From contig MFCA01000025.1 in assembly GCA_001775095.1 (NCBI GenBank), positions 116,075 to 180,074 of the forward strand: a stretch of DNA of 64,000 nucleotides, in the 5' to 3' direction. Positions 4,663 to 53,993 of this stretch are shown here, one piece after another. The notes under the pieces were generated by a model, which searched no databases, was not told where the DNA came from, and worked only from the letters and a program-made list of their open reading frames with translations. The translations under genes and the position numbers were made by a program. The stretch's first letter is position 1; each line of letters opens with the position of its first letter. Source of the DNA: Candidatus Curtissbacteria bacterium RIFOXYA1_FULL_41_14 (GTDB lineage: Bacteria > Patescibacteriota > Microgenomatia > Curtissbacterales > GWA2-41-24).

Positions 4663-4670
4663 CTCAATAT

Positions 4671-4734: not shown

Positions 4735-4738
4735 ATCC

Positions 4739-5411: not shown

Positions 5412-5477
5412 GTCATTCTGAGAGAAACAAAGAATCTATTATTTCAATGCAGATCCTTCACTTCCGTTCAGGATGAC
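5412..5477. repeat. miniature palindromic repeat, second copy of the 4671..4734 family
   Basis: 'GTCATTCTGAGAGAAACAAAGAATCT...CAGATCCTTCACTTCCGTTCAGGATGAC'. Confidence 0.7.
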
Positions 5478-5484
5478 AAAAAAG

Positions 5485-10550: not shown

Positions 10551-10709
10551 AGATAAATTTCTAAATCCTAAATCCTAAATCCTAAATCCTAAACAAATTC
10601 TAATGACCAAAATCCAAATTTCAAAACTTTTTATTTTTTTTGAATTTAGATTTTTGATATTGTTTAGAGTTTAGATATTAGTGCTTAGGATTTATTTAGG
10701 TCAATTAGG

Positions 10710-11411
10710 TCAATTTAAATACCTGCTTATAACTTCATCAATTGCTTCGATAAATATTTCGTCCTCAATTGGCATAAATTTTGCCCGAAGATCCTCGATT
10801 GTTTTTATATCCCCTACTCTAATAAATTTTCTTCTGATAACTGCCCCCGTATCGTAAACTGTCGGCTTCATGAAATGAATCGTTGGACCAAAGTAAGTCA
10901 GTCTCTTAGCCAAGACCGCTTTGAAAACATCTGTTTGTTCCCCTTTGATAACTGGGCTGATTGTACCATCGGGGAGGGTAATTTTATCGCCTTCACCCTT
11001 TTTAGGTAGTAGTGCCGGATGTGCATTAATTGCCGCATACCCTTCACCGAAATTGCACTTGAAAAAATTGAAAAAGTTATCATCCATTACTAAATCCCAA
11101 CCGCCGAAAACCAGAAGCTTTGGCCTGTATTGCGGCTGAGATATGAACCAGCCCAAGTCCTTCATGTAGTTGGACCTTGCTTTTGAGTCACCACTGGCCA
11201 TCCTGCTGCGATAATCAGGAAGATTCCAATAAACTGCCGGTATTTGATTTTCAAGAGCAAATTTAAGTCCCCAAGATTCCTTCTTATGACTAACCACTAA
11301 TCTAATATAGAATTTACTTTGAGGCTTTTGGGCAGCTTTTATGATTGCCGGCAGCTTTGCACCTCCTCCAATCATAATAGCAATAGGAGTTTTTTGGGAT
11401 TGAGAGGCCAT
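10710..11411 (-). CDS. purN: formyltransferase, phosphoribosylglycinamide formyltransferase-like
   Basis: Formyl_trans_N signature 'INAHPALLP', in pur-operon context. Confidence 0.65.
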   Translation of the reverse strand: MASQSQKTPIAIMIGGGAKLPAIIKAAQKPQSKFYIRLVVSHKKESWGLKFALENQIPAVYWNLPDYRSRMASGDSKARSNYMKDLGWFISQPQYRPKLLVFGGWDLVMDDNFFNFFKCNFGEGYAAINAHPALLPKKGEGDKITLPDGTISPVIKGEQTDVFKAVLAKRLTYFGPTIHFMKPTVYDTGAVIRRKFIRVGDIKTIEDLRAKFMPIEDEIFIEAIDEVISRYLN

Positions 11412-11695: not shown

Positions 11696-11770
11696 CTTCC
11701 ACTCTCTGCGTCATTCCCGCAAATGCGGGAATCTATACAATAATTTGATTTGGGGAATAAAAAAGATTAC

Positions 11771-12241
11771 GGGAAGAGAGTAAGCCAGATTCTGTTTTAC
11801 CCTTCGATTACACTCAGGGTAAAACCCTGAGCTTGTCGAATGGGTTTTAACGATCATCTATCTCGAAATGACAATTTGATCATTTCGGCTCGCCTTTTGG
11901 GCGGGCTGCCCCTACTTAGAACCTCCCGGAAGCATGGTCAAACGGTTCTAGTCTGGGTTGCAACAGGTAGGATTGTCAGCGTTTCACTCCCGCTCGTCTC
12001 TGTGACTCTCAAGTCTTGTCAGTTCAAGACCTGTTCTAAACCCCGTATGCGGGGAACATCTGCTGTGGAGCAGACAAGGGTCTAGACACCAGCTATTAGC
12101 CTTCGACTGTACTCAGGCTACCCTGAATTACATTGAAGGGTACTAGTCGGAGCTTACACTCCGTCCCTTGCTTCCTGTTGTCTGGACTTTCCTCCAGGTA
12201 CCGTACGGTACCTGGCGATCGTTCTTCTTCCCGAAATCAGA
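11771..12241 (-). ncRNA. rnpB: RNase P RNA (bacterial type)
   Basis: Minus strand carries the conserved 'GGAGGAAAGUCCAGAC' (P4 5' strand) near the 5' end and 'ACAGAAUCUGGCUUA' (P4 3' strand) near the 3' end, plus 'GUGAAACGCUG'-like segments. A T-run and the hairpin 'GATTCCCGCATTTGCGGGAATG' follow the 3' end. Confidence 0.7.
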
Positions 12242-22403: not shown

Positions 22404-22472
22404 CTAAACTTCGCGAATTGGATGCGAATTTGATTAATGCGAATAGATGCGAATGAGCGTATGGGTACTGAC

Positions 22473-27901: not shown

Positions 27902-27961
27902 TTGTTAAATGCGAATGTATGCGAATGGTTAAAATCTATCTTACAAGATTAGATTGTTCTA

Positions 27962-27996
27962 ACAAAGCATTATATCTCAAAAAATATTATTGTCAA
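27962..27996 (-). promoter_or_regulatory. sigma70-like promoter (TTGACA-17-TATAAT) for hup, flanked by ATGCGAAT-type direct repeats
   Basis: Minus strand reads 'ATTCGCGTACATTCGCATTTGACAATAATATTTTTTGAGATATAAT'. The same ATTCGC(A/G)TACATTCGCATTT box recurs abutting the hup ATG. Confidence 0.55.
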
Positions 27997-28015
27997 ATGC
28001 GAATGTACGCGAATA

Positions 28016-35955: not shown

Positions 35956-36191
35956 CTGTATCTAAAAGTTATTCTGCCTTTTGCTAAATCGTATGGTGTC
36001 ATTTCTATCTTTACTTTATCTCCGGGTAAAATGCGCACATAATGTATCCTCATCTTACCAGACAGATGACATAAAACATTTTTATCAGCTTCAACGCTAG
36101 GAAGTTGCCCAGCCTTTACCAAAACTCTAAACATGGTATTTGGTAGAGCCTCAATTACTTCTCCTTCAACTTCTATAACTCCCGCTTTCAT
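35952..36191 (-). CDS. infA: translation initiation factor IF-1
   Basis: S1-like OB fold, 79 aa. A perfect hairpin 'AAGGGGA...TCCCCTT' lies immediately upstream. Confidence 0.9.
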
Positions 36192-36314
36192 ACTTTAAGG
36201 GGACAACCTACGGTTTTTCCCCTTAATATTCTCCTTCCCCTTTAGTGGACAAATTTAAACTGGCAGAGCCAGATTCAAATTTAATTAAAGTAATAAATTC
36301 TAATTTTACCAGAT

Positions 36315-40179: not shown

Positions 40180-40727
40180 ATACTACCCCCGACAGCCTTA
40201 ACTGTCTTGCCGGCTTTTCTTCTAACTATTTCGTCAATATACTTAATCCCCTTGCCTTTATAAGGTTCCGGCGGCCTGACTCTTCTTATTTTCGCTGCTG
40301 TCTCGCCGACCAGTGCCTTGTCTGTGCCAGAAACAATAATTTTGTTTTCTTTTGTTTCAATCTGAATTCCTGGAACCGAATTGATAGTAACTGGATGAGA
40401 ATAACCAACGTTTAGTACCAAATCTTCACCTTCTTTTGCGGCGCGATAACCGGTACCAACTATTTCTAAAGTTTTCTGATGACCATCAAGGGCCCCTTTA
40501 ATCATATTAGCAATCAAGCTCCTGGTTAAACCATGAAGAGATTTAGAAAATTTATTTTCCGATTTTCGGGAAACTCTTATTTTATCCTCTGTCACTTCGA
40601 CTTTTACTTCCGGACGAAATCTAAAAGAAAGATTCCCTTTCGGGCCGGAAACATTAATTTCTGAGTTCTCGACTTTAACGCTTACTCCTTGCGGTATTAA
40701 TATAGGTTGTTTGCCGATCTTTGACAT
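40176..40727 (-). CDS. rplF: 50S ribosomal protein L6
   Basis: Two L6 repeats. Confidence 0.9.
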   Translation of the reverse strand: MSKIGKQPILIPQGVSVKVENSEINVSGPKGNLSFRFRPEVKVEVTEDKIRVSRKSENKFSKSLHGLTRSLIANMIKGALDGHQKTLEIVGTGYRAAKEGEDLVLNVGYSHPVTINSVPGIQIETKENKIIVSGTDKALVGETAAKIRRVRPPEPYKGKGIKYIDEIVRRKAGKTVKAVGGSI

Positions 40728-40733
40728 ATTTCT

Positions 40734-41129
40734 TTACCAAATCTGGCAGATGATTTCACCGCCAAGATTTTTTGCTTTCGCCTCGCTTCCGGTCATTACA
40801 CCATTTGGCGTAGAAATAATAACAATACCCCTACCCCCTTTTAATTTTTTGATATTTTTACTTTTTGTATAGACACGCAGACCCAATTTTGAAACTCGTT
40901 TAATCTGCCAAACTTTGGGTTTTCGGCCTTCATACAAAAGTTCGATTTCGATCTCTGGCTTGTCTTTCAGGTCGCGGGTACTTTTTTTAGTAACTTTACT
41001 CACAACTTTCTCCTTTTCCAAGACTTTAGCAATTTGCAATTTAAAACCTGAATAGGGAACAAAAACCTTCGGCTTTTGCGCCATGTACCCATTTTTGATA
41101 GTAACCAACATATCAGCTATCGGATCCAT
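40734..41129 (-). CDS. rpsH: 30S ribosomal protein S8
   Basis: S8 family. SD 'AAGGAGG' upstream. Confidence 0.9.
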   Translation of the reverse strand: MDPIADMLVTIKNGYMAQKPKVFVPYSGFKLQIAKVLEKEKVVSKVTKKSTRDLKDKPEIEIELLYEGRKPKVWQIKRVSKLGLRVYTKSKNIKKLKGGRGIVIISTPNGVMTGSEAKAKNLGGEIICQIW

Positions 41130-41184
41130 ACGCCCTCCTTCGTCGGGAATTTTAAATTTAAAATTTCAAATTTAAAATTAATTA

Positions 41185-41370
41185 TCACCATGATGCTTTT
41201 TTGACTCCCGGTATTTCACCACGATGAACAAGATCCCTGAAACAAAGACGGCAGATACCGAATTTTCGCAAGTATCCTCTGGGTCTTCCACAGAGCCGGC
41301 AACGATTCCGATGTCTTATTTCAAATTTTAACTTTTGTTCGTTTTTAACAATTTTTGATTTTTTAGCCAT
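41185..41370 (-). CDS. rpsZ: 30S ribosomal protein S14 type Z (zinc-binding)
   Basis: 61 aa with '[20 protein letters not shown]'. Confidence 0.9.
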
Positions 41371-41388
41371 TGTAACCTCCTGTTAATT

Positions 41389-41931
41389 CTAATTTTTTTT
41401 GAATGGGATCCCTAAAAGTTCAAATAGTCTTTGTGATTTTTGCTTATTACTATTTCTGATAACTATTGTAGCCACTAAACCTCTAATCTTATCAATTTTA
41501 GAGTAGTCAATTTCTGGAAAAAGGATCTGTTCATCAATTCCTAAACTATAATTGCCAAACTCGTCGAAGCTAGAGGGTGTTAGTCCTCGAAAATCACGCA
41601 TTCTGGGCAAAACAATTGAAATTAATTTTTCAAAAAAGTACCAAGCCTTTTTACCACGCAAGGTCACCATTGCCCCGATTGGGTCTTTTTCTTTTAACTT
41701 AAAAGAAGAAATTGATTTTTTCGCTTGTCTAGTAGCAGGTCTTTGTCCCGTAATTGTCGCAAGCTGATCCTTGACTCTTTCAAGTACCTCTTTGTTGCTG
41801 ATGGCTTCGACCACGCTGCTATTTATAACAATTTTCTCAATTCTTGGCACTGCCAGATCATTTGACAGTTCAAATTCTTCCTTCAATTTGGGCAATGCTA
41901 CTTCTTGATACTTTTTATTAAGATTCGTCAT
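41389..41931 (-). CDS. rplE: 50S ribosomal protein L5
   Basis: L5 family. Confidence 0.9.
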   Translation of the reverse strand: MTNLNKKYQEVALPKLKEEFELSNDLAVPRIEKIVINSSVVEAISNKEVLERVKDQLATITGQRPATRQAKKSISSFKLKEKDPIGAMVTLRGKKAWYFFEKLISIVLPRMRDFRGLTPSSFDEFGNYSLGIDEQILFPEIDYSKIDKIRGLVATIVIRNSNKQKSQRLFELLGIPFKKN

Positions 41932-41932
41932 G

Positions 41933-42253
41933 CTAGCTCCTCTGGGCTGTTAATTCACCTTTACATTTTTTACAGAGTCTCGTTTTTGTTTTTCCTTCAA
42001 TAATAAATCCTATCCTAGTTAATTTTGAACATTTTGGGCAAATAATTCTAACCTTAGAAACAGGAATTGGTCTGGCGATTTCATAAATACCAGCGCTTTG
42101 ACTCCTGGTAGCTTTTCGGTGCCTTTTGTAAATATTTACGCCACTAACGATAAGCTTATTTTCAGATGGAAGAACTTTTTCGACTGTTCCTTTTTTCCCC
42201 TTATCCCGACCGGATACTATTTGTAATTGGTCTCCAACTTTAAATTTAAACAC
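41933..42253 (-). CDS. rplX: 50S ribosomal protein L24, with CxxC...CxxC zinc-ribbon in the C-terminal half
   Basis: KOW motif 'GDQLQIVSGRDKGKKG'. GTG start overlaps the L14 stop. 'CPKCSKL...CKKCKGE'. Confidence 0.8.
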   Translation of the reverse strand: MFKFKVGDQLQIVSGRDKGKKGTVEKVLPSENKLIVSGVNIYKRHRKATRSQSAGIYEIARPIPVSKVRIICPKCSKLTRIGFIIEGKTKTRLCKKCKGELTAQRS

Positions 42254-42254
42254 T

Positions 42255-42623
42255 TTAGATAACCTCCTTTGCCAGGGATGCAATTTTAACAAATCCCTTA
42301 TCTTTAATTTCTGAGGCCATTGGTCCAAAAATCCTCGTTGCTCTAGGTATCTTATTTGCATCCACAATCACGGCAGCATTATCGGAAAATCTTATATATG
42401 AACCATCCTTGCGGCGTGTTTCTTTTTTGGTTCTAACGATTACGGCTTTCACAATTTCATGGTCCTTAACTTGACCCATAGGATTTGCACCAAAAACAGC
42501 ACATGTTACTAAATCCCCAAGTTTGGCAAATCGGGTACCGGAGCCTTTCCCGATTCCGATAACTCTAAGGCGTTTGGCGCCACTATTGTCGGCAACTTTT
42601 AATATCGACCTTTTTGCGACCAT
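42255..42623 (-). CDS. rplN: 50S ribosomal protein L14
   Basis: L14 family. Confidence 0.9.
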   Translation of the reverse strand: MVAKRSILKVADNSGAKRLRVIGIGKGSGTRFAKLGDLVTCAVFGANPMGQVKDHEIVKAVIVRTKKETRRKDGSYIRFSDNAAVIVDANKIPRATRIFGPMASEIKDKGFVKIASLAKEVI

Positions 42624-42884
42624 TTATTTCAAAACCTCCATCACCTTAAAATGAATATCTTTTGAAATTGGTTTGGTCTCCATAATTTTGACTTTTTGGC
42701 CAACCTTAACTTCTAAATCATTGCGGGCTTTAAATTTCTTAGTCTTGGTAATTAATTTTTTATAAAGCGGATGCCTAACTTTTGTACTAACTTTGACAAC
42801 AACTGTTTTTTGCATCTTGTCGGAAATTACAATTCCCGTTTTAACTTGAGGCATTTTTCTCCTTTCCTGTTTCTGTCTTTTCAT
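42624..42884 (-). CDS. rpsQ: 30S ribosomal protein S17
   Basis: Start chosen at '[10 protein letters not shown]', by analogy with the Bacillus-type 'ERNQRK' N-terminus. Overlaps the rpmC tail. Confidence 0.8.
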   Translation of the reverse strand: MKRQKQERRKMPQVKTGIVISDKMQKTVVVKVSTKVRHPLYKKLITKTKKFKARNDLEVKVGQKVKIMETKPISKDIHFKVMEVLK

Positions 42885-43101
42885 GGTCGTCTGTGCTTTT
42901 CTGAATGAAAATTTTGGCATTCAATATAGTCTTCACTTTGGCGATATCCTTTTTTATTTGTTTTAGGCAGTGAACATTTTTAGCCTTTCCCATTCGCAGC
43001 TCTATAAGAGCATCGGTTTTTTCTTTCTCTAACTGGCCAATTTTTTTCTCTAGATCACTAGTGCTACCGGTCTTTAGGTTACCAAAATCTTGTTTTTTCA
43101 T
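42841..43101 (-). CDS. rpmC: 50S ribosomal protein L29, with C-terminal extension
   Basis: L29 helical hairpin in conserved position. Confidence 0.75.
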
Positions 43102-43502
43102 CTTGAGATCATCTTAGTTTTTATTGGTAATTTATTTGCTGCTAATCTCATTGCTTCCTGGGCAATTTTTGCATCAATCGCTCCCATTTCAAACAGGATT
43201 AAGCCAGGTTTTACAACTGCAACATAGCCTTCGACATCCCCCTTGCCTGATCCCATTCTCGTTTCGGCGGGTTTTTTGGTTACCGGTTTATCCGGAAAAA
43301 CTCTGATCCAAATACGACCGCCTCTTTTGGTATAGTGGGTCATTGCCCGACGGGCAGCCTCAATTTGTCTGGCAGTTAACCAAGCTGTCTCCAGACTCTT
43401 TAATCCATATGTGCCAAAGGAGATGGTGCTGCCACGAGTAGCTATACCCTTCATCCTGTTTCTAAATTGTTTTCTATATTTTGCTCTTTTAGGCGCTAAC
43501 AT
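43098..43502 (-). CDS. rplP: 50S ribosomal protein L16
   Basis: '[11 protein letters not shown]'. Confidence 0.9.
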
Positions 43503-43595
43503 ATGCTCTCCTTCGGAGGAATTTCTAATTTCTAATTTCTAATTTCCAATATTTGAAATTTGACATTTGAAATTGGTAATTATTTGAAATTCTCA

Positions 43596-44237
43596 TTAGC
43601 TCTCCCCCTTAAATATCCAAACCTTAACACCAATAATCCCGGATCTGGGTACCTTGGCATCAATTTTTGCAAAGTCAATTTCAGCTCTAAGAGTCTGCAG
43701 AGGTATCGAACCTTCTTTGATCGTTTCACGCCGGGCAATTTCCGAGCCGCCAAGTCTTCCAGCTAAAGAAATTTTAACGCCTTTTGCTCCAGATCTTTTG
43801 ACCCGTTCTAAAGATTGTTTCATCACCCTTCTAAAGGGGAATCGTCTTGCAAGTTGGTCAGCAATATTAACTGCAATCAGGTAAGCATCTAAATCTGGGG
43901 ATTTTACCTCTTCAAATCTAATATCTAATTTGCTTGCATCGGTAATCTTAAATTTCTTCATCAGGGCCGATTTTAACTGTTCATGACCCGTCCCCCCCCG
44001 GCCAATAGCAACCCCAGGCCTCGAAACATGAATTGCGATAATTCTTTTGTCAAAGGAACGCTCAATTTCGACCTTAGAAATTCCAGCTGCTTTTAAGATC
44101 TCCATCAAAAACTTTCTAATTTTTTGATCCTCTAAAAGCTGCTGCGCATAAATATTATCTTTAGCGGCGAACCAACGCGAACTCCAGGTATAAACATTAC
44201 CAAGCCTGAAGCCAATAGGATTAACTTTTTGTCCCAC
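43596..44237 (-). CDS. rpsC: 30S ribosomal protein S3
   Basis: GTG start preceded by SD 'AAGGGAGG'. KH and S3-C domains. Confidence 0.9.
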   Translation of the reverse strand: MGQKVNPIGFRLGNVYTWSSRWFAAKDNIYAQQLLEDQKIRKFLMEILKAAGISKVEIERSFDKRIIAIHVSRPGVAIGRGGTGHEQLKSALMKKFKITDASKLDIRFEEVKSPDLDAYLIAVNIADQLARRFPFRRVMKQSLERVKRSGAKGVKISLAGRLGGSEIARRETIKEGSIPLQTLRAEIDFAKIDAKVPRSGIIGVKVWIFKGES

Positions 44238-44318
44238 AGAACCTCCCTTCGATCGGTAGTGAAAAGTGAAAAGTGAAAAGTGAAAAGTTATTGAAAAATT
44301 TTTCTAAATTTTGATTTG

Positions 44319-44741
44319 TCATTTTGTCGCTTTTGACTCCTTTGATACTTTTGATACTGATCCTCTTGATGCTTCTGGTACTTCTGGCACCTTTGATACT
44401 TCTTTCCTTTGTTCTCCTTCGAGTACTACTTTAATATGGCTTGTTCTTTTTAGAATCGGATGAGCGCGCCCTCGTGCCACGGCTTTAAACCTCTTAAAAA
44501 CAATACCCTTAGTTACCGAAATTTCCCTGAAAGTTAAACTATTTTCAGTAAGATCAAAATTGTTTTTAGCGTTGGCAATAGCTGACGCTATGACTTTTTT
44601 GAGAGGCAATGAAGATCTTTTGGAAACGTAGTTTAGGATCTCCACGGCTTCTTTCGGTGGTAATTTCTTTATTTGTGCAACGACAAGTCTCACTTTCTCT
44701 GGTGATATTCGGACATTTTTCGCAGTTGCCGTTACTTCCAT
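44319..44741 (-). CDS. rplV: 50S ribosomal protein L22, with low-complexity C-terminal tail
   Basis: L22 family. Confidence 0.85.
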   Translation of the reverse strand: MEVTATAKNVRISPEKVRLVVAQIKKLPPKEAVEILNYVSKRSSLPLKKVIASAIANAKNNFDLTENSLTFREISVTKGIVFKRFKAVARGRAHPILKRTSHIKVVLEGEQRKEVSKVPEVPEASRGSVSKVSKESKATK

Positions 44742-44750
44742 GATTCCTCC

Positions 44751-45035
44751 TTATTTTTTAGAGGTAGATTTCTCAGTAATTTTGCCATGTCCTCTGAAAG
44801 TTCTCGTAGGTGCAAATTCGCCGAGTCTATGACCGACCATTGGTTCACTAACGAAAACATTGATAAATATCCTGCCGTTATGAACTGCGAGAGTATGATT
44901 GACAAACTCCGGCGGAATTTGTGAATGTCTGGCCCAAGTCTTAACAGGCTCTTTCTTGCCAGATTCTTTCTGAGCCATAACTTTTTTTAATAATTTCTGA
45001 TCCACATACGGACCTTTTTTAGACGAACGACTCAT
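44751..45035 (-). CDS. rpsS: 30S ribosomal protein S19
   Basis: S19 family. Confidence 0.9.
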
Positions 45036-45077
45036 GTTTGCATAAGATTCTTAAGTCACCTAAGTCACTTAAGTAAC

Positions 45078-45899
45078 TTATTTTCTCTTCCTTTGCAGGA
45101 TGAATTTCCCTGACGGTTTATTCTTACTTCTGGTCTTTTTAAAAGCCGGTTTACCCCAGGGGGTCTTAGGATGCATACCAATGCCGGATTTACCTTCACC
45201 GCCTCCATGCGGATGCGAGCCCGGATCCATGGCTACGCCTCTAACTTTTGGTTTTTTGCCCATGTGGCGGAGCCTGCCGGCTTTACCAAAAGTAATATTT
45301 TTCCAATCAGCATTGCCCACTTGACCAATAGTCGCAAAACAGGCGGCATTAATTTTTCTAAGCTCCTTTGAAGGAAGTTTAAGGTGAATCCATTTGCCTT
45401 CTTTAGCTGCAATAATTGCTCCTGTTCCGGCGCTTCTAACTATTTGGGCACCAGCCCCAGGTGTTAATTCGACATTATGAACGACTGTTCCGATTGGCAT
45501 TTTTCCTACCGGTAGTGCATTTCCTACTTTAATATCAGCTTTTTCTCCAGCAATAATCTGATTGCCTACCTCAAGACCTAGCGGTGCCAAAATGTACTTT
45601 TTCTCGCCATCCAAATAATGCAGAAGGGCAACATTGGCTGATCTATTTGGATCATATTCAATAGCGGCAACACGAGCCTTAATATCTCGTTTATTGCGGG
45701 TAAAATCAACTATTCTTAGATTTCTTTTATGCCCCCCTCCTTTGCCTCTCACTGTGACTCGACCACCAGATCTGCCTCCGGCTTTTGACAAAGGCGCAAC
45801 CAGACTTTTTTCCGGTTTAGTTTTGGTAATCTGCGAAAAATCTAAACCGGTTTTAAATCTGGTTCCCGGTGTTTTTGGTTTATAAACTTTGATTGTCAT
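45078..45899 (-). CDS. rplB: 50S ribosomal protein L2
   Basis: L2 family, 273 aa. Confidence 0.9.
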
Positions 45900-45908
45900 T
45901 TCTCCTTC

Positions 45909-46271
45909 TTACCCTCGGCTTTTTTGTATATCTTTCTCTTTGCCTTTATCTTTGTCTTTTTGTTTTTTACCTTTTGTTTCTGATTTTGGCATAAGCATAG
46001 CAATCGTTTGCCCTGATTTAAGATAAACAATTGCCTTTTTGCCGCCGCCGGTCTTTACTTGCTTTCGAGTCTTGGCAACTCTTTTAGTCTTTGGTGCAAT
46101 ATTGGTCATATTTACTCGCATAACATCGACACCGAACTGAGAAAAAACCTGTTTTGCTACCGCGTTTTTGGTTGCCTGCGTTACCACTAGAAAAGTATAA
46201 ATACCTTTCTCCATCTGCTTATAAGCTTTTTCCGAAAGTATGGCTTTTTTGATAACACTTTTTAATTTCAT
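45909..46271 (-). CDS. rplW: 50S ribosomal protein L23, with Lys-rich C-terminal tail
   Basis: L23 family. Confidence 0.85.
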   Translation of the reverse strand: MKLKSVIKKAILSEKAYKQMEKGIYTFLVVTQATKNAVAKQVFSQFGVDVMRVNMTNIAPKTKRVAKTRKQVKTGGGKKAIVYLKSGQTIAMLMPKSETKGKKQKDKDKGKEKDIQKSRG

Positions 46272-47110
46272 TTAGCGACTCCTATTGCCTCTTTGGATAG
46301 CAATATATTTCTATTCTTAATAATTTCGAAGGCATTGAGATTGGCCATACGACTGACTAGTATTCTCTGAATATTTCGCGTCGCCAGTTTCACATCTTGT
46401 CCATTGTTTACCGGTTTGTCGGAAATTACTAAAAGACAATTTCCTTGTAAATCTAATTTTTTAAGTAAACTTGCAATAATTTTCGTCTTAGCTTGAATTT
46501 TTTCGATATTAGTAATTACTTTGACACTTCCTTCTTGGGCTTTTAATGAAAATGCACTCACCAGAGCCTTTCTTTTCATTTTCTTAGGCAAAGTTAAAGT
46601 TACCTTTCTGAATTTAGGGCCATGGGCAACACCTCCGCCTACCCAAAGCGGTGAGCGGATTGATCCTGCGCGGGCTCTGCCAGTGCCTTTTTGGCGCCAG
46701 GGCTTGCGGCCCCCGCCTCTTGTCTGGGAACGAGTTTTTGTAGAACCCGCGTGAACTGACTGGTTTACCGAATAGATGCGAATTGCCTGGGCTAAAAGCT
46801 TTTCGTTTGGCTTTTGACCGAAAATTTCGCGAGGAAGAGCAACTTTGCCAATAGATCGGCCGTTTATGTCAAAAGCAGGAGCCAAAAGTCCTCCACCAGC
46901 GGATTTAACCTGCCTGCCGGCAGGCAGGCTCTTGACGGTTTTTGTCTTTCTCGGTGCCTTCTGTTTATCTTCTGTGCCTTCTGTGATTATCTTTTTATCC
47001 ACGATCTTAGAACTGGTCTTCGATCTAATTTTGACCTGTTTAGATTTTGCTATCTTTGTTATTTTTTTTGCTGCTGCCATAATTATTTCTCTTGAAACCA
47101 CTGAGAGCAC
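46268..47110 (-). CDS. rplD: 50S ribosomal protein L4, with ~75-aa N-terminal extension containing an in-frame palindromic repeat ('LPAGRQ')
   Basis: L4 core begins near 'FDINGRSIGKVALP'. The extension contains 'CTGCCTGCCGGCAGGCAGG'. Confidence 0.8.
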   Translation of the reverse strand: MLSVVSREIIMAAAKKITKIAKSKQVKIRSKTSSKIVDKKIITEGTEDKQKAPRKTKTVKSLPAGRQVKSAGGGLLAPAFDINGRSIGKVALPREIFGQKPNEKLLAQAIRIYSVNQSVHAGSTKTRSQTRGGGRKPWRQKGTGRARAGSIRSPLWVGGGVAHGPKFRKVTLTLPKKMKRKALVSAFSLKAQEGSVKVITNIEKIQAKTKIIASLLKKLDLQGNCLLVISDKPVNNGQDVKLATRNIQRILVSRMANLNAFEIIKNRNILLSKEAIGVAK

Positions 47111-47137
47111 TGAACGTTACTGAATACACTGAAATAT

Positions 47138-47917
47138 TTATTCAGTGGTTTCAGGTCTTTTCTCAGTGACTTCAGTGGTTACAGGCTTTGTCCCTTCTGT
47201 TCCTTTTGTTTTCTCTGATACTTCTGATACCTGTGATGCTTCTTCTTTTGTCTCCTCTTCTTCTTTCTCCTTAGGAGGTGGAGGAGGTGTGTATCCCTTT
47301 ACCTTTCCAGTTTTCTTAATAACCAAAAGGCCATTTATCGCACCGGGAACTGAACCCTTGACTAAAAGTAGATTTTTACCAGGATCAACTTCAATAACTT
47401 CAAGACCACCAATTGTTAATTTTGAAACGCCCATATGACCAGCCATCTTTTTACCCTTAAACACTCTTCCAGGGGTGGTAGTTTGTCCGATCGATCCCGG
47501 TGCCCGATGGCGGTCGGATTGCCCGTGAGTTTTTGGACCCCCTGCAAATCCCCATCTTTTGACTACCCCTGCAAATCCTTTCCCTTTCGTAATACCTGTC
47601 ACTTTAACTTGATCTCCAGGTTCAAAAATTGAAACCGTTAGCTTTTCACCGGCGCAGTATTTTGACGATTGATCTTCCAATGGTTTGACTACTAGTACTT
47701 CTTTGACAACTCTTGGGGCAAATCCGCAAATCTTTACAAACGCATTTTCGGTTTTTTTAACTTTTTTCTTCTTCCCAAACCCCAGTTGTACCCGATCGTC
47801 GCGAGTTCCTAAAATAATATTAGGTTCGGCCACTACCTGAGTTACCGGAATGCGATGACCAAATTGGTCAAACCGGACTGACATTTCCTTTTTTAAACCG
47901 ATCAATGTATTAATCAT
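47138..47917 (-). CDS. rplC: 50S ribosomal protein L3, with Pro/Glu/Lys-rich C-terminal extension
   Basis: Start set at 'MINTLIGLKKEMSVRF'. ~50-aa low-complexity tail. Confidence 0.85.
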   Translation of the reverse strand: MINTLIGLKKEMSVRFDQFGHRIPVTQVVAEPNIILGTRDDRVQLGFGKKKKVKKTENAFVKICGFAPRVVKEVLVVKPLEDQSSKYCAGEKLTVSIFEPGDQVKVTGITKGKGFAGVVKRWGFAGGPKTHGQSDRHRAPGSIGQTTTPGRVFKGKKMAGHMGVSKLTIGGLEVIEVDPGKNLLLVKGSVPGAINGLLVIKKTGKVKGYTPPPPPKEKEEEETKEEASQVSEVSEKTKGTEGTKPVTTEVTEKRPETTE

Positions 47918-48147
47918 TTTTACACCAAAAAGGCAGGACTCCTTAGATGTCTTCAGGTGTCCCACCACAACGATTTTAAAATGTTCTGTTAATCGTTAAT
48001 GGCCAGTTGTTATTAAATTTTTTACTTATTAACCTCCGCCGTAAAATTTCTAATTTCTAATTATTCTAATTTCTAATCAATTCCTAAATTTAAAAATTTC
48101 TAAATTATTTAGGTCAATTAGGTTACTTAGAGCAATTAGAAATTAAC

Positions 48148-48456
48148 CTACATCTTAAGTTCTATATTCACCCCGGCAGGTAGATCCAAATGAGTTAAAG
48201 AGTCAATTGTCTTATTCGTCGGCTCAATGATATCGATCAACCTTTTGTGAATTCGCATCTCAAATTGTTCACGCGCATCCTTATCTGTATGCGGGCTGGT
48301 AAGAACCGTGAATCTTTCAATTCTCGTCGGCAATGGAATTGGCCCGGAAATTTTAGCGCCGGTCGACAGCGCCGTGTTGATGATATCACGGCATGCCGCA
48401 TCGATTACCCGCGCGTCATATGCTTTAAGTTTGACTCGAATTCTTCCTTTTGGCAT
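48148..48456 (-). CDS. rpsJ: 30S ribosomal protein S10
   Basis: S10 family, 102 aa. Confidence 0.9.
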
Positions 48457-48532
48457 AGTTATCTTCTTTTAATGTGCTACTCTTATTGACTAATGATTAG
48501 AGACTAAGGACTATACAAGTTTCGCACTTTTT

Positions 48533-48596
48533 GTCATTCTGGCTTGTCCAGAATCTGATTCTGGATGCGCTCGTTTCACTCGCTTACCAGAATGAC
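48533..48596. repeat. miniature palindromic repeat 'GTCATTCTGG...CCAGAATGAC', related to 4671..4734
   Basis: 64-bp inverted repeat in the tuf-rpsJ spacer. A partial copy lies at 48738..48765. Confidence 0.6.
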
Positions 48597-48848
48597 AAAT
48601 ACGGTTCGAGTTGGAAAGTCGAGAAGAAAACTATTCTAAGCGGTTAGGCTTGAAGTAAAATCTTGTGATTATCATACCTTTATAGTTCTCGACTATGCTC
48701 GAACAATAATTAGATTCTATCGTCCTTCGATAAACTCAGGACTCCAGAATGACATTTGATTGTCAATTCTATATCAGCAGGTCGCCCTTCGACAAGCTCA
48801 GGGCGCTCCTCTGATATATCAGACTCAGCGGAGCTGAGGGCTGATATC

Positions 48849-48881
48849 AAAAAAAAGACCCCTGAGGCAAAGCTTAGGGGT
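48849..48881 (-). terminator. rho-independent terminator downstream of tuf
   Basis: Minus strand: GACCCCTAAGCTTTGCCTCAGGGGTC followed by T8. Confidence 0.75.
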
Positions 48882-48893
48882 CGATTCTGCCAT

Positions 48894-50078
48894 TTAAGCA
48901 AGAATCTTGGAAACCACTCCGGCACCAACCGTGTGGCCGCCTTCGCGGATTGCAAACCTTAAGCCTTCTTCAAGAGCAACGGGGGAAATTAACTTTACCT
49001 TCATTTTAATATTATCACCCGGCATAACCATCTCAGTGCCCTCGGGTAAAGTGGCTTCGCCGGTAACATCAGTCGTTCGAATATAAAATTGAGGCCTGTA
49101 GCCGGTAAAGAACGGTGTGTGACGACCGCCTTCTTCCTTGGCTAGAATATAAACTTCCGACTCGAATTCGGTGTGCGGAGTAGTGGTGCCGGGTTTTGCC
49201 AAAACCTGCCCTCTTTCAACTTGATCTTTTTCGACGCCCCTAAGCAAAACGCCGATATTGTCCCCGGCCTGACCTTCGTCCATCGACTTTCTGAACATTT
49301 CAACTCCGGTGACCACAGTTTTTTTAGTTGCTTTAATTCCGACAATTTCAACCTCTTCATTAACTTTAACAACTCCCCGCTCGACACGACCGGTGACCAC
49401 CGTTCCCCGACCCTTGATTGAAAAGACATCTTCAACCGGCATCAGGAAAGGTTTGTCTAGATCGCGGGCAGGAGTTGGGATTTTCTCATCAACTGCAGCC
49501 ATTAATTCTTCGATTGACTTAACTGCTTCGGCATCGCCTTCCAGGGCTTTTAAGGCTGAACCGCGGATAATAGTGGCATTTTTGCCGTCAAACTGGTATT
49601 TATCTAAAAGCTCACGGATCTCCAACTCGACAAGATCTAAAAGTTCCTTATCCTGGACCATATCCGTCTTGTTCAAATAGACTACCATTGCCGGAACATT
49701 AACTTGGCGGGCCAAAAGAACGTGTTCCCGGGTTTGAGGCATCGGGCCGTCGGGAGCGCTAACAACTAAAATAGCGCCGTCCATTTGGGCGGCACCGGTA
49801 ATCATGTTTTTGATGTAATCTGCGTGTCCGGGAGCGTCAATATGGGCATAATGTCGTTTTTCGGTTTCGTATTCGACGTGGGTGATATTGATGGTGATTC
49901 CGCGCTGTTTTTCCTCCGGTGCATTGTCGATCTGATCGAAAGACTTGGCCTGAGCCAGACCTTTTTTGGAGAGAACCTGAGTGATTGCGGAAGTTAACGT
50001 GGTCTTGCCATGGTCGACGTGACCAATCGTTCCGATATTAACGTGCGGTTTAGTTCTTTCAAATTTTCCTTCAGCCAT
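48894..50078 (-). CDS. tuf: elongation factor Tu
   Basis: '[10 protein letters not shown]', 394 aa. Confidence 0.95.
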
Positions 50079-50168
50079 TTTTGATTAAAACAAAACATCA
50101 GTCGATTAGACTGATTGTATTGGATAGTTTATACGATTCCCGCAGCAAAATGCAAGAGGTGAAAAAAA

Positions 50169-52304
50169 TTAGCTGTCCTTGGTCTCACCCTTGGCTTTTG
50201 CGACTATTTTCTCCGTAATATTTTGCGGGACTTCCTGATAGTGAGACGGCTCCATATAAGTTGATCCACGACCTTGGGTCATTGACCGCAGGGTGGTCAC
50301 ATAACCTGACATTTCGGCTAAGGGCACTAAGGCAGTAATGATGACGCTGTTTGCCCGATGGTCGCTTGATAAAATTTGAGCTCTTTTGGAGGACAGATCA
50401 CCGATCACATCGCCCATAAATTCTTCCGGGATTGTTACTTCAACCTTCATAATTGGCTCAAGAAGAGTGAGGTTAGCCTTTTTGACAGCTTCCTCAAAAC
50501 CTATACTGCCGGCAATTTTAAAGGCAATATCCGAGGAGTCTACATCGTGATAAGTACCATCATATACCGCAACTTTCATATCAACCATCGGGTATCCGGC
50601 CAGTACGCCCATTTCCATTTTTTCCTTAACCCCTTTTTCAATTGAAGGAATAAATTCGGAAGGGATGGCTCCGCCCCTAATCTCGGATTTAAATTGGAAT
50701 CCTTCTCCTCGCGGCAGAGGCTCAACCCTTAAGAAACAATGACCGTATTGACCACGACCGCCGGATTGCTTGATATATTTACCTTCACCCGTTGCTTCTT
50801 TGGCAATGGTTTCTTTATAGGCAACTTGCGGACTACCGACTTTTGCACCGACAGCAAACTCCCGTTTCATGCGGTCAACAAGAATCTCCAGATGTAATTC
50901 CCCCATGCCGGATATAATCGTCTGGCCTGTTTCTGAGTCACTTTTTATTCTAAAGGTTGGATCTTCTTCGGAAAGACGGTTTAGAGCGTAACCTAACTTT
51001 TCCTGATCAGCTTTGGTATTAGGTTCAATTGCCATGGCAATTACCGGCTCGGGGAAAGAAATTGATTCCAGAGTGATCGGTGCCCCCTCACTGCATAAGG
51101 TATCGCCGGTTTGCGTATTTTTAAGGCCGATAACAGCAATAATTTCTCCTGCATATGCTTCAGGTATTTCCTCTCTGGTATTGGCGTACATCAAAAGAAT
51201 CCGGCCAATTCTCTCACGGTCCCTTTTTGTAGCATTTAAGGTTGACATTCCGGATTTAAGGGTTCCCGAGTAAACTCTTACATAAGTAAGTTTTCCGACA
51301 TGCGGATCTATTTGAATCTTGAATGCCAGACCGCAAAACGGAGCGTCAATATCCTGTTTGCGTACCTCTTTCTCATTATTTTTGGGGTTGACCCCTTCGA
51401 TTTGGGTAATGTCCAAGGGAGAGGGAAGATATTCGACAATCGCATCAAGAAGAGGCTGGACGCCTTTATTTCTAAGACTGGAACCGGCTAGAACAGGAAC
51501 AATTTTGTAATCAATGACTGCTTTCCTCAAGGCCTTTTTGACCTCATCAATTTTTAACTCTTCCCCTTTCAAATATTTTTCAAGAAGGACATCATCGTTT
51601 TCCGCAATTTTTTCTACCAGTTCATGCCGGTATTTTTTGACATTAGCTTTATCCTCATCGGGAATCGGCGCTTGCGAAAATTTCATACCTGTTGCATCGT
51701 CGGCCCACTCATAGGCTTTTTCTGACAGGAGATCAATTACACCCCTAAATTCATTTTCCTTACCAAGAGGAAGATTGTAAGGGTAAGCTGGAGCACCGAG
51801 TCGTTCTCTTATAGACTTTAGAGTCGCAAAGTAATCGGCACCAAGTTTGTCCATTTTATTAATAAAGCAAAGCCGGGGAACTTTGTATTTGTCGGCTTGT
51901 CGCCAGACTGTTTCCGATTGGGACTGAACACCTTCTTCGGCATCAAGAACCGTCACGCCTCCATCCAAAACTCGCAGGGATCGTTCGACTTCTGCCGTAA
52001 AATCAACGTGTCCTGGGGTATCAATAATGTTAATTCTGCTTTCAATATCCTTATAAGGACCGGTTGTTGGAGTCCAAAAGGTAGTAACTGCTGCCGAAAC
52101 AATTGTGATTCCCCTCTCTTTTTCCTGGGCCATCCAATCGGTAACAGTGGTCCCCTCGTCGATATTGCCAAGCTTGTAGGTCTTGCCGGTGTAGTAGAGA
52201 ATCCGCTCGGTGGTCGTAGTTTTACCGGCATCAATATGGGCAATAATGCCAATATTTCTTATCCTGTCTAATGGATATAGCCGACTTTTAATATTTGTTG
52301 CCAT
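50169..52304 (-). CDS. fusA: elongation factor G
   Basis: 'AHIDAGKTTTTE', five-domain 711 aa. Confidence 0.95.
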   Translation of the reverse strand: MATNIKSRLYPLDRIRNIGIIAHIDAGKTTTTERILYYTGKTYKLGNIDEGTTVTDWMAQEKERGITIVSAAVTTFWTPTTGPYKDIESRINIIDTPGHVDFTAEVERSLRVLDGGVTVLDAEEGVQSQSETVWRQADKYKVPRLCFINKMDKLGADYFATLKSIRERLGAPAYPYNLPLGKENEFRGVIDLLSEKAYEWADDATGMKFSQAPIPDEDKANVKKYRHELVEKIAENDDVLLEKYLKGEELKIDEVKKALRKAVIDYKIVPVLAGSSLRNKGVQPLLDAIVEYLPSPLDITQIEGVNPKNNEKEVRKQDIDAPFCGLAFKIQIDPHVGKLTYVRVYSGTLKSGMSTLNATKRDRERIGRILLMYANTREEIPEAYAGEIIAVIGLKNTQTGDTLCSEGAPITLESISFPEPVIAMAIEPNTKADQEKLGYALNRLSEEDPTFRIKSDSETGQTIISGMGELHLEILVDRMKREFAVGAKVGSPQVAYKETIAKEATGEGKYIKQSGGRGQYGHCFLRVEPLPRGEGFQFKSEIRGGAIPSEFIPSIEKGVKEKMEMGVLAGYPMVDMKVAVYDGTYHDVDSSDIAFKIAGSIGFEEAVKKANLTLLEPIMKVEVTIPEEFMGDVIGDLSSKRAQILSSDHRANSVIITALVPLAEMSGYVTTLRSMTQGRGSTYMEPSHYQEVPQNITEKIVAKAKGETKDS

Positions 52305-52404
52305 AACTTTTACTTCTCTTATTTAACCTTCTTTTGTACAGCCTTGAGCTTTTGTCTACCATATTAGTTCTGTTTTTTAACAATTATCATAATTTTTGCC
52401 GGAA

Positions 52405-52674
52405 TTATTTTGCTTTTTTGCCGTTTTGCTCCAGAGGGGCTAATGGGCGAGGATGTTCTAGGGTGTGGATCTCATTTTTAATTTCGGTGACCATTGCTCT
52501 TAGAACAGAAACTTCCTCATCGGCAAGTTCCCAGGCGGCATTTTCATTCCACGCCGAACCAGACTCTTGATAGGCCTCACCGTATTTGGCTAAGGCCTCT
52601 CTGAGCTTTACTTCTTCAAGCTCTTTGAGCTTATTTTTGAGTTGTTTTAACTTCTGTGCTTTTGTCATTGGCAT
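52405..52674 (-). CDS. hypothetical small coiled-coil protein between rpsG and fusA
   Basis: 89-aa Lys/Glu-rich ORF with no known domain. Occupies a normally tight intercistronic junction. Confidence 0.4.
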   Translation of the reverse strand: MPMTKAQKLKQLKNKLKELEEVKLREALAKYGEAYQESGSAWNENAAWELADEEVSVLRAMVTEIKNEIHTLEHPRPLAPLEQNGKKAK

Positions 52675-52775
52675 ATTACAAGTAAACTGTTTTTACAAAT
52701 TTTATTTAAGCAGAAAATAGCCGGTTGTGACAACAATTAAAAACTAAGCGGGAATTATATCATAAATGAGGCTGA

Positions 52776-53270
52776 TTACCAACGAAAATGTGCAAAAGCC
52801 TTATTTGCTTCGGCCATGCGGTGCATTTCCTCCTTCTTGGATACTGCTTTGCCCGTACCCTGCGCCGCTTCTAAAATTTCAGTGGCAAGCTTGACAATCA
52901 TCAACGGTTTGTTTTTGAGCTGTTCGGTCTCTTTGGACGAGCGATTTCTGGCTGAAGTGACCAGCCATGAAATGGCCAAAGACTGCCTTCTCGGTCCTCT
53001 AACTTCCATTGGTACCATATAAGAAGCTCCGCCAACTCTTCTTGGTCTAACTTCCATTCTGGGAGTTATGTTCTCTAGAGCCGATTCAAAGGTTGCCAGC
53101 GGATCTTTGTCTTTTTGCGCAATTAATTTAAATGCTTCATAGACAATTTTTTGCGCTAGGGATTTCTTGCCGCTAACCATTAGTTTATTAATTAATTTAG
53201 CTACTTGCGGCTTTTGATAAATAGGATCTGGTTGGATTTGTTTTTTTTCTATTCTTCCGGTTCTTGACAT
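52776..53270 (-). CDS. rpsG: 30S ribosomal protein S7
   Basis: S7 family. Confidence 0.9.
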   Translation of the reverse strand: MSRTGRIEKKQIQPDPIYQKPQVAKLINKLMVSGKKSLAQKIVYEAFKLIAQKDKDPLATFESALENITPRMEVRPRRVGGASYMVPMEVRGPRRQSLAISWLVTSARNRSSKETEQLKNKPLMIVKLATEILEAAQGTGKAVSKKEEMHRMAEANKAFAHFRW

Positions 53271-53305
53271 AGTACTTTCTCCCTTTGGTCGCTACATTTG
53301 AAATT

Positions 53306-53800
53306 TTATTCCGCCGGTTGCGCCGGCGTTGGAGCCTGATTTGCAGCGGCGGTTGCCCCGACAGTAGCTGCTGCCTGAACACCAGTAACAGCCCCTGATT
53401 TTTTAGTTCCATACAGGGAACGTCCCTGCTTTCTGCTAACAACGCCGGTAGTATCGTATCTGCCGCGAATTATGTGATATTTAACTCCAGGCAAATCTTT
53501 AACCCGTCCGCCTCGTATTAAGACTACTGAGTGTTCAGCCAGTTCGTGTCCTATTCCGGGAATGTAAGCAGTAACTTCTTGTTTATTGGACAGACGGACT
53601 CTTGCTACTTTCCTAAGTGCCGAATTGGGTTTTTTTGGTGTCATTGTTTTAACAACAACACACACACCCCTCTTTTGTCCGGAAGGGTAATAAACATATC
53701 TATTTTTGTGTGTGTTAAAAGCACGCCGAAGAGCTGTCGCTCTAACCCTTTTGGGTTTTGCTTTTCGGCCTTTTCTCACAAGTTGATTTACTGTCGGCAT
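53306..53800 (-). CDS. rpsL: 30S ribosomal protein S12, with ~13-aa internal insertion and Ala-rich ~35-aa C-terminal extension
   Basis: '[11 protein letters not shown]...[10 protein letters not shown]...[11 protein letters not shown]'. 164 aa against the usual ~124. Confidence 0.9.
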
Positions 53801-53805
53801 GATAT

Positions 53806-53850
53806 TAAGTTATAAGTTATAAGTTATAAGTTGTAAGTTAAAAGTTAAAA
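53806..53850 (-). repeat. heptamer tandem array (AACTTAT/AACTTTT x7 on the minus strand) in the rpsL 5' leader
   Basis: Perfect and near-perfect 7-bp units between a 'TGATATAAT' extended -10 and the rpsL ATG. Confidence 0.7.
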
Positions 53851-53993
53851 GTTGTTGAGAAATTATATCAGAAACTTGGCCGCTTTTCATTGTATTTTTG
53901 CCCTTTCCGGACTAGTAGGAATTAAGCGGCCAATTATATCAGCTGTCGCCTTCTGAAATGCAGAAGTATACTCCACTGATATAATTGTCAGGC

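Follow-up and report, generated by a model that had tools for sequence, protein, structure and literature searches.

Heptanucleotide tandem arrays in the ribosomal-protein operon leaders of Candidatus Curtissbacteria: probable slippage-prone simple sequence repeats

Introduction

As a rule, few parts of a bacterial genome are as compact and conserved as its ribosomal-protein operons. Here we describe a stretch of 64,000 nucleotides (hereafter the window; assembly GCA_001775095.1, contig MFCA01000025.1) from an uncultured groundwater bacterium, Candidatus Curtissbacteria, in which the leaders of rpsC, rplP, rpsH, rpsS, rplC, rpsL and purD carry tandem arrays of short A/T-rich units, mostly heptamers. 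These arrays are probably hypermutable heptanucleotide simple sequence repeats (SSRs; long SSRs or microsatellites), whose effect on expression is modest at most and independent of sequence. Whole 7-nt units change between otherwise identical genomes, units are homogenized within an array by concerted evolution, the arrays are excluded from coding sequence, where repeats are mostly of period 6 or 9, and they are a habit of the whole clade. Nothing shows that they serve as specific regulatory sites.

Tandem arrays in the window

Arrays were called with Tandem Repeats Finder (TRF) and by direct reading, and all units are given in the mRNA sense, on the minus strand. The rpsC leader carries CTTTTCA x4.4 (44258-44288) and the purD leader GGATTTA x4.7 (10561-10593), with copies that are 100% identical in both cases. 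The rplP leader contains AGAAATT x4.4 (43520-43550) and, adjacent to it in the opposite orientation, AATTTCA (AATTTCA/TTCAAAT) x3.4 (43551-43574). Upstream of rplC there is a second AGAAATT x4.4 array (48045-48077), upstream of rpsH lies TKAAATT x4.6 (41148-41179; alternatively a 14-mer x2.3), and the rpsL 5' untranslated region (5' UTR) has AACTTAT x6.9 (53806-53853). The rpsS leader array is a 9-mer, TGACTTAAG x3.4 (45050-45080); a first-pass annotation had assigned it to rplB, although it lies downstream of that gene. Further 9-mer arrays are found at 48109-48139 and 10696-10715. Only two units recur between loci of the window, AGAAATT (rplP and rplC leaders) and TTGACCTAA (purD and rplC leaders). 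Dispersed repeats of the REP/BIME or MITE type, with at least 30 nt of the same sequence at many loci, do not describe these elements, as the units differ by locus.

The arrays are clearly not randomly distributed. Using a curated map of open reading frames (ORFs) in the window and counting period-7 arrays of at least three copies, we found seven in 5,010 nt of intergenic DNA, compared with a mean of 0.035 and a maximum of one in 200 dinucleotide shuffles. Coding DNA, which makes up 91.5% of the window (58.5 kb), holds a single weak period-7 array, such that seven of the eight are intergenic and the arrays are far from being equally frequent inside genes. Arrays within genes are mostly of period 6 or 9, with one each of periods 7, 8 and 10.

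All of the arrays belong to the coding (minus) strand side and lie a short way before start codons in mRNA leaders, as the first-pass annotation had recognized; their downstream ends are 5-20 nt from the start codon rather than the 20-40 nt it had given. The rplC array lies farther upstream: ORF callers begin that gene prematurely, at GTG 47968, and its real start codon, the ATG at 47917, puts the array at a distance of ~130-230 nt. The array-bearing spacers are unusually long, as had been noted, measuring 55, 93, 81, 42, about 230 (rpsJ-rplC) and 193 nt. Each array adjoins a ribosome-binding block, for example CTACCGATCGAAGGGAGGTTCT-GTG at rpsC and CCTCCGAAGGAGAGCAT-ATG at rplP; Shine-Dalgarno (SD) sequences are present at rpsC, rplP and rpsH and absent at rpsL, rpsS and purD. 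The description as simple tandem heptamers applies to some leaders only, since several consist of two facing arrays of complementary units that form hairpins. Two forms can thus be distinguished in the mRNA: G-poor unstructured tracts (rpsC and rpsL), and hairpin arms (purD, rplC, rpsS, rpsH and, weakly, rplP). All of them lie in transcribed positions, inside operons or, for rpsL, downstream of the best promoter match.

Genes on the minus strand also contain tandem repeats, with a period of 9 or 6, at the 3' end of rplV (44330-44401), in rplC (47214-47243) and in rplW (45931-45959). These in-frame repeats build low-complexity tails such as the Lys/Ser-rich C-terminal extension of L22, whose GTATCAAAA-type units are found in the related loci L001 and L002 too. 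They represent the same slippage tendency, filtered by the reading frame.

Variation between closely related strains

Comparison of the window with its closest relatives (loci are designated by L numbers) shows that the arrays change by whole units. Two relatives, L081 and L082, match the window at every position across 12.6 kb, and L083 differs at four positions, none of which is in an array. Across 12,734 nt, L173, from a separate assembly, is free of substitutions relative to the window and differs from it at exactly two points, each the loss of a single unit: CTTTTCA from the rpsC array and AGAAATT from the rplP array, leaving three units in each. L174, whose S3 protein has one amino-acid change, shows 15 mismatches and a single indel over 20.7 kb. 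In this indel the rpsL array has lost four units (28 nt), going from seven to three. Four of the 15 mismatches are alignment noise at the indel, and two fall inside the 32-nt rpsH array, where two units have been converted to TTTGAAA. This homogenizes the direct repeat. We considered whether these two substitutions, which affect pairing partners in the predicted rpsH hairpin, might be compensatory, but they replace a U-A pair with G.G and thus represent homogenization, not maintenance of a stem.

At a somewhat greater distance (93% identity in the rpsC protein), the first three rpsC-leader units of L164 have changed from CTTTTCA to CTTTACA, although there are still four units and the spacer is still 81 nt; the rplP leader has been replaced wholesale. 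The four-unit alleles are in the majority, being present in the window, L081-L083 and L174-L177. Assembly artefacts were considered and rejected, as the arrays (28-49 nt) are far shorter than the k-mers and reads used and recur in independent assemblies.

In these comparisons the arrays thus outpace the point substitutions that build up in the 12-20 kb around them, and they change by whole units. The first-pass annotation held that different units at different genes argue against slippage. The strain comparisons point the other way: strains differ essentially by whole units in otherwise identical sequence and units change in concert within an array, a pattern characteristic of slippage acting independently at each locus.

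In L176 and L177, rpsC and its two leaders are identical to those of the window, whereas the flanks are strongly diverged (168 mismatches in part of 2.9 kb) and, in L176, additionally carry insertions. This suggests that the two are recombination mosaics among co-occurring strains.

Arrays across the Curtissbacteria

We extended the TRF analysis to 19 Curtissbacteria gene clusters with 21.8 kb of spacer DNA; a metagenome scan, with patterns that proved too generic, added few close relatives. The spacers contain 49 arrays, 35 of them with period 7, nine with period 8, two with period 9, three with period 10 and none with period 6. Arrays in the coding DNA of these relatives are mostly of period 6, 9 or 12. 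Recurrence in orthologous spacers of relatives, which the first-pass annotation had proposed as a check, is thus borne out. On the mRNA strand the arrays are composed of 44% A, 33% T, 13.5% C and 9.9% G, compared with 18.2% G in other spacer DNA.

Upstream of rpsC, CTNTTCA arrays followed by a conserved SD block and GTG (ATG in L004) are present in the window, L164, L001-L004 and L007; in L001, L002 and L004 the array is split by a G+C-rich hairpin, and within L001-L003 the unit variants, CTATTCA and CTCATCA, are uniform in each case. A second group (L005, L165, L168, L169 and L172) has RTTAGTC arrays, no SD and an ATG start. Elsewhere, one genome has ATTCGCA-type repeats at this position, one has a structured motif and five have no spacer. 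The site upstream of rplC is occupied by hairpins of unrelated units: CCGAAU/AUUCGGA in L001, GGAAAUU/AAUUUCC in L002 and AUUGUUA/UAGCAAU in L005 (z = -5.5 to -7.2), with weaker ones in L004 and L006.

The rpsC and rplP leaders

The rpsC-leader array is free of G on the mRNA strand and is predicted to be unstructured (fold z-score +1 to +1.7). It is followed by a ribosome-binding block, (CA)CTACCGAYCGAAGGGAGGTYYT with the SD GAAGGGAGG, at 44238..44257 (minus strand) and then by the GTG start; this block hardly varies among the window, L164 and L001-L003 and is more divergent in L004 and L007. The corresponding rplP block, CCTCCGAAGGAGAGCAT, is at 43503..43519 (minus strand), and its SD can pair with a preceding CUCC. 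The two facing arrays of the rplP leader, AGAAATT and AATTTCA, can pair to form a weak A/U hairpin (-15.5 kcal/mol, z = -2.0). Besides its two sites in the window, the AGAAATT unit is found in the rpsH leader of L085.

Both leaders also contain short open frames. In the four-unit allele, a 33-codon ORF (44221..44322, minus strand) begins at an ATG overlapping the rplV stop (ATGA), reads through the array and terminates 14 nt into rpsC. The equivalent rplP-leader ORF (four units) has 23 codons, starts at an ATG overlapping the rpsC stop (UAAUG) and ends inside the array. The rpsC-leader frame is open in four of seven genomes and shuffled leaders are open in 26-53% of cases, such that its openness has no statistical significance and is not evidence of translation.

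In the three-unit alleles the stop-overlapping ATGs are in frame with rpsC and rplP, and gene callers report a 239-aa S3 and a 163-aa L16 in L173 (6001-6720 and 6720-7211; proteins P0131 and P0132). These extended proteins are likely to be annotation artefacts. One could imagine that a change in unit number acts as a reversible frame switch on S3 and L16 through the AUGs that overlap the upstream stops: with four units the short leader ORFs could relay translational coupling across the long spacer, and with three units N-terminally extended S3 (239 aa) and L16 (163 aa) would be made. We regard such a switch as very improbable, although if true it would provide heritable, reversible ribosome heterogeneity or a tuning of coupling in a CPR (candidate phyla radiation) bacterium.

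The rpsH, rpsS, rplC, rpsL and purD leaders

The rpsH-leader array, which is conserved in L004 and L005, is predicted to form a 14-bp A/U hairpin (z about -2). The rpsS-leader 9-mer is self-complementary and forms a predicted 13-bp hairpin (-12.9 kcal/mol, z = -3.5); this array is identical in L164, L174 and L177. In the upstream part of the rpsJ-rplC spacer (48040..48147, minus strand), AATTTCT-type and AGAAATT-type arrays in inverted order form a long imperfect hairpin (-26.1 kcal/mol, z = -4.5 to -5.8). The spacer between purN and purD (10551..10700, minus strand) is likewise predicted to form a long hairpin, in which the GGATTTA array constitutes the 3' arm and degenerate ATCCTAA/ATCTAAA units the 5' arm (-37.3 kcal/mol, z = -4.8 to -5.9); purD and the upstream purN were identified by Pfam matches.

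The rpsL array has no G in the mRNA sense, is unstructured (-2.4 kcal/mol) and ends 5 nt before the ATG. The best promoter match of the region, ATGAAA-17-TG-TATAAT (53862..53890, minus strand; 10/12 positions, extended -10), is just upstream of it, and we therefore place the array in the 5' UTR. At the same site L004 has AAACTTG x2.

The remainder of the rpsJ-rplC spacer (47918-48039, minus strand) is a conserved leader for which an Rfam search gave no match. It has an SD-like GGAGGT without an ORF, followed by a hairpin with a TTAACGA-type heptamer array as its loop, a unit kept in about 10 genomes. At the 3' end of the spacer (~47925-47963) there is a conserved hairpin, GGGACACCU[variable insert]AGGAGUCCU, followed by GCC-U5-7, which has the appearance of an intrinsic terminator or attenuator placed between the two genes.

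Tests of regulatory roles

The first-pass annotation had proposed translational enhancers or standby sites, phased bends, and protein- or RNA-binding arrays. We computed the energy required to open the region from -18 to +12 around each start codon in native leaders and in leaders with the array deleted, shuffled or replaced by coding-like sequence. The rpsL array lowers this energy to 2.6 kcal/mol compared with 8.5 kcal/mol for coding-like sequence, and none of 25 replacements is as low; at purD it is marginally lower than in the replacements. The native arrays of rpsC, rplP, rpsH and rpsS yield no gain in computed accessibility over shuffled or coding-like replacements. As a general account, the idea that arrays make the ribosome-binding site more accessible thus finds its in silico support at rpsL and, marginally, at purD only.

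These results bear on a role as selected translational enhancers or ribosome standby sites, in which A/U-rich single-stranded tracts would load the 30S subunit, possibly through protein S1, and would allow independent initiation at cistrons that are no longer translationally coupled. Several features are in keeping with such a role. The arrays end 5-20 nt before start codons and persist at the same junctions across the clade, those of rpsC and rpsL are G-free and predicted to be unstructured, and initiation at rpsL, rpsS and purD, without an SD, must rely on something else. In addition to the computed effect at rpsL, there is local structure at the ribosome-binding sites of rpsC, rplP and rpsH (opening energies of 13-17 kcal/mol), a setting in which a standby site would be of use. 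However, the arrays of these three genes and of rpsS bring no computed gain, five of the seven leaders form hairpins rather than open tracts, and the close relatives L006, L085, L166 and L171 have no spacer at all at the same junctions. Unit number also varies between co-occurring strains, and the rplP leader is completely replaced between genomes with 93% identical rpsC proteins. We therefore think this role possible, albeit rather unlikely.

The hairpins raise the alternative that inverted arrays are elements of mRNA processing or stabilization, either RNase III sites or protective stem-loops, that would segment the polycistronic transcript. They are far more stable than shuffled sequences at purD and rplC (z about -5 for each) and at rpsS, the corresponding position before rplC holds hairpins of differing units in L001, L002 and L005, and there is a precedent in the ATCTTTC repeats that form one arm of an RNase III-cut hairpin (PMC12721329). 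However, among 20 hairpins the sense strand is the more stable in 12 and the antisense strand in eight, with inconsistent z-scores, and we rejected RNA-specific hairpins as a general description. As there is no systematic sense-strand advantage, selection on RNA cannot be separated from palindromes in the DNA, which explain the data equally well. The L174 substitutions in the rpsH array homogenize a direct repeat at the expense of a stem pair, and the rpsC and rpsL arrays have no hairpin to be processed. Altogether a processing role appears unlikely.

The arrays might also offer multivalent binding to a protein that recognizes single-stranded RNA (S1, CsrA, a cold-shock domain protein, or a KH-domain protein, for instance S3 itself) and hence be translational operators. 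A spacing of 7 nt suits the footprint of small RNA-binding domains. A footprint of this type has been proposed for the TAACTGA repeats described below (PMC4679880). In addition, a UCAC(U) core is kept at the unit junctions of most rpsC-leader variants (CTTTTCA, CTATTCA and CTCATCA) while inner positions vary; it is also seen in the rpsG leader of L004 (CTTATCA), although CTTTACA of L164 has ACAC instead. Nevertheless, units at different genes are unrelated, the unrelated RTTAGTC family serves rpsC in five genomes, unit number is polymorphic, and we found neither a candidate protein nor a shared motif. Searches of Rfam 15 with gathering thresholds and permissive E-values (window, operon region and L001-L007) gave no relevant leader family, and at E-values up to 5 across 40500-54500 only chance-level matches were seen. 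Translational operators are improbable in our view; some protein-binding role is conceivable, but nothing found here calls for one.

Lastly, the arrays could act as DNA: they could be promoters or UP elements, bend the helix in phase, or bind proteins in the manner of iterons. They are A/T-rich, the unit at 48109-48139 includes TTGACC, and weak promoter-like matches are present on both strands of the rpsH array. However, promoter-like matches in the region are no more numerous than in shuffles (29 versus 25.7 +/- 6.2) and none falls on the rpsC or rplP arrays. Scans for promoters and terminators gave no promoter signal at the internal arrays, the only good promoter being in the rpsL leader, upstream of the array, and genuine promoters of this genome look different (TTGCAA-17-TATAAT). 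The arrays are inside operons, and on a 10.5-bp helix a 7-bp spacing places successive A-tracts 240 degrees apart, so that bends cancel and phased bending is unlikely. Action at the DNA level is highly improbable. We also considered phase-variable contingency loci and rejected them, as the arrays are in leaders, outside ORFs and outside -35/-10 spacing, and the downstream genes are ribosomal-protein genes or purD, not surface or host-interaction genes.

Comparison with known heptamer repeats

Heptamers are described as the most abundant class of long SSR (LSSR) in most prokaryotic genomes, an abundance for which polymerase slippage has been held responsible (Mrazek, Guo and Shah 2007, as reported in PMC4679880 and PMC4692102). 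As far as those reports describe them, LSSRs and the window arrays share head-to-tail units of 5-11 nt beyond chance expectation with heptamers dominant, confinement of units that are not multiples of three to noncoding DNA, and a proposed origin by slippage; changes in unit number between strains are also seen in our data. The window arrays differ in belonging to a CPR (Patescibacteria) lineage, in being concentrated in core ribosomal-protein operons, in the many different A/T-rich units, and in often being inverted pairs that form hairpins.

A further parallel is with the TAACTGA direct repeats of marine Beggiatoaceae and some Cyanobacteria and Bacteroidetes (MacGregor 2015, PMC4679880), for which binding by S1, Csp or CsrA has been proposed (PMC4679880). 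These likewise have 2-6 heptamer copies a few nt before start codons and are internal to ribosomal-protein operons (L3, S4, S1, S21 and fusA). Most of them have no SD; among the window leaders it is missing at rpsL, rpsS and purD but present at rpsC, rplP and rpsH. However, that system uses one unit genome-wide that is common across phyla, whereas the window units differ by gene and by genome and have documented strain-level changes in number. We considered whether the arrays belong to the TAACTGA family, but this unit occurs six times singly and never in tandem in the window; the nearest array unit is TAACTTA in the rpsL leader, with a 6/7 match.

The (ATCTTTC)n repeat of Haemophilus influenzae hmw1A/hmw2A is a phase-varying 5'-UTR repeat that forms a hairpin arm cut by RNase III (PMC12721329). 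It resembles the window arrays as a transcribed heptamer SSR with slippage-variable unit number that can be an arm of a long hairpin. It differs in controlling phase variation of a surface adhesin, in having 11 or more copies and in its demonstrated RNase III processing; the window arrays precede housekeeping genes, have 3-7 copies and show a major allele that is stable across most assemblies. A repeat-hairpin arm of the hmw type is predicted at purD, rplC and rpsS, weakly at rpsH and rplP, and not at rpsC or rpsL, and there is no sense-strand bias.

Cyanobacterial STRR sequences are tandem intergenic heptamers (Mazel 1990, as cited in PMC4692102), and the G-rich heptamers of Xanthomonas and Nostoc keep their position while varying in length between close relatives (Rehm 2015, PMC4692102). 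As far as they are described there, these repeats are like the window arrays in being intergenic, often intercistronic, with occasional inverted pairs, and in varying in length and sequence between close relatives at a retained genomic position. Their units are G/C-rich (CCCCAGT, GGGAATC and GGGGATT) and can form G-quadruplexes, unlike the A/T-rich units of the window. None of TAACTGA, STRR1-3, ATCTTTC, GGGAATC or GGGGATT is found in tandem within the window, and a literature search gave no description of such repeats or leaders in CPR bacteria.

Other features of the window

The minus strand of the window carries one unbroken gene cluster, rpoB-rpoC-rpsL-rpsG-(89-aa ORF)-fusA-tuf-rpsJ-rplC-...-rplO-secY-adk-map-infA, from which the L30 gene is absent. 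The best matches of the S3 protein are all from Candidatus Curtissbacteria (CPR/Patescibacteria, Microgenomates), and a 12.6-kb stretch is identical, bar four positions, to contig MFCD01000016.1 (GCA_001775165.1). The conserved 89-aa ORF in the gap between rpsG and fusA (52405-52674, minus strand) has a weak match to the GreA/GreB N-terminal coiled coil that is below the cut-off (E = 6e-4), and related coding sequence is seen between the same genes in L001, L004 and L006.

Many Curtissbacteria translation genes are preceded by a structured leader motif of ~100 nt, whose end lies 0-10 nt from the start codon. Its parts are an A/U stem bearing a GC clamp, the purine-rich linker GGGAAAGGGAAUAUU and another stem, AAGGGAAAACC-GNNA-GGUUUGCCCUU, in which the 3' arm extends over the SD position. 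Searching with a covariance model gave 33 copies on the sense strand within 303 kb; the genes that they precede are rplP, rpsQ, rplN, rplF, rplV, rpsS, rpsH, rpsC and infA. Up to eight copies are present in one locus, within 13.7 kb. The window has one copy, upstream of infA (36184-36290, minus strand); others are in L001 (13526-13628), L002 (7970-8072), L168 and elsewhere, with four in L165 and eight in L003. Compensatory changes are seen in 18 of 23 pairs and 94.9% of alignment cells are paired, values reached by none of 500 shuffles, although the alignment was fitted to its own model, which favors structure. The motif can replace an SD; before rplV, the spacer measures 9 nt in the window and 189 nt in L164. 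It is often flanked on its 5' side by an AAATCAA heptamer array. It is absent from Rfam 15 and is a candidate for a new family of cis-regulatory RNA.

An RNase P RNA of bacterial class A lies at 11765-12234 (minus strand). It is 470 nt long compared with the 367-position model, and so has insertions; as its score of 76.9 bits is under the Rfam gathering score of 100, it is missed at default thresholds.

Two further types of repeat are present in spacers. Irregularly spaced (9-11 nt) ATGCGAAT/ATTCGCAT motifs are found at 22404-22472 and 27902-28015, where they lie in a convergent spacer and flank a TTGACA-17-TATAAT promoter on either side, and related ATTCGCA, CCGAAT and ATTCGGA repeats fill leaders in L001, L003, L164, L167 and L168. 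Palindromes of the form GTCATTCTGG...CCAGAATGAC or GTCATCCTGA...TCAGAATGAC, together with CTGATATA(TCAG) motifs, occupy the 437-nt tuf-rpsJ spacer (48457-48893) and other sites (4663-4738 and 5417-5484, all minus strand), and similar elements are present in spacers of the relatives.

Discussion

We favor the reading of the arrays as slippage-prone heptamer SSRs. Slipped-strand mispairing acting independently at each leader would account for units that differ from gene to gene. Arrays would build up where a leader is free to vary in length, a single stretch bounded by the upstream stop codon on one side and the SD or start codon on the other, and this restriction would explain why they end 5-20 nt before the start. 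Any effect on expression is most likely small and quantitative, making the array a tolerated 'tuning knob' and not a sequence-specific operator; it could operate through leader length, through a single-stranded platform beside a locally structured ribosome-binding site, or through a shift in the frame or end-point of a short ORF that begins at a stop-overlapping AUG.

A purely neutral SSR model does not predict everything that we observed, and four points weigh against it. Unit families persist upstream of rpsC across deep clade splits (CTNTTCA in seven genomes and RTTAGTC in five), the rpsC spacer is of equal length in the window and L164 despite turnover of its units, hairpins of unrelated units are found at the same site upstream of rplC in at least four genomes, and the arrays are depleted of G on the mRNA strand relative to other spacer DNA. 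These points hint at some selection on the presence, length or form of the arrays; the persistence of unit families, the shared leader length of the window and L164, and the G-depletion are what the neutral model explains least well.

The kind of element is already known. What is notable here is its position in the core ribosomal-protein operons of a CPR lineage and its strain-level unit turnover. Unit-number polymorphism, concerted evolution and wholesale leader replacement, behaviors of heptamer SSRs, are now documented in this lineage. There are also practical consequences, in that the arrays give rise to probably spurious N-terminal extensions when S3 and L16 are annotated and are useful as strain markers. 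The alleles with three versus four and three versus seven units constitute a natural series for testing the role of start-proximal heptamer repeats. For the organism itself, the arrays mean that its ribosomal-protein operons contain mutational hot spots, in which the fastest-evolving bases of 12-20 kb lie directly before essential genes.

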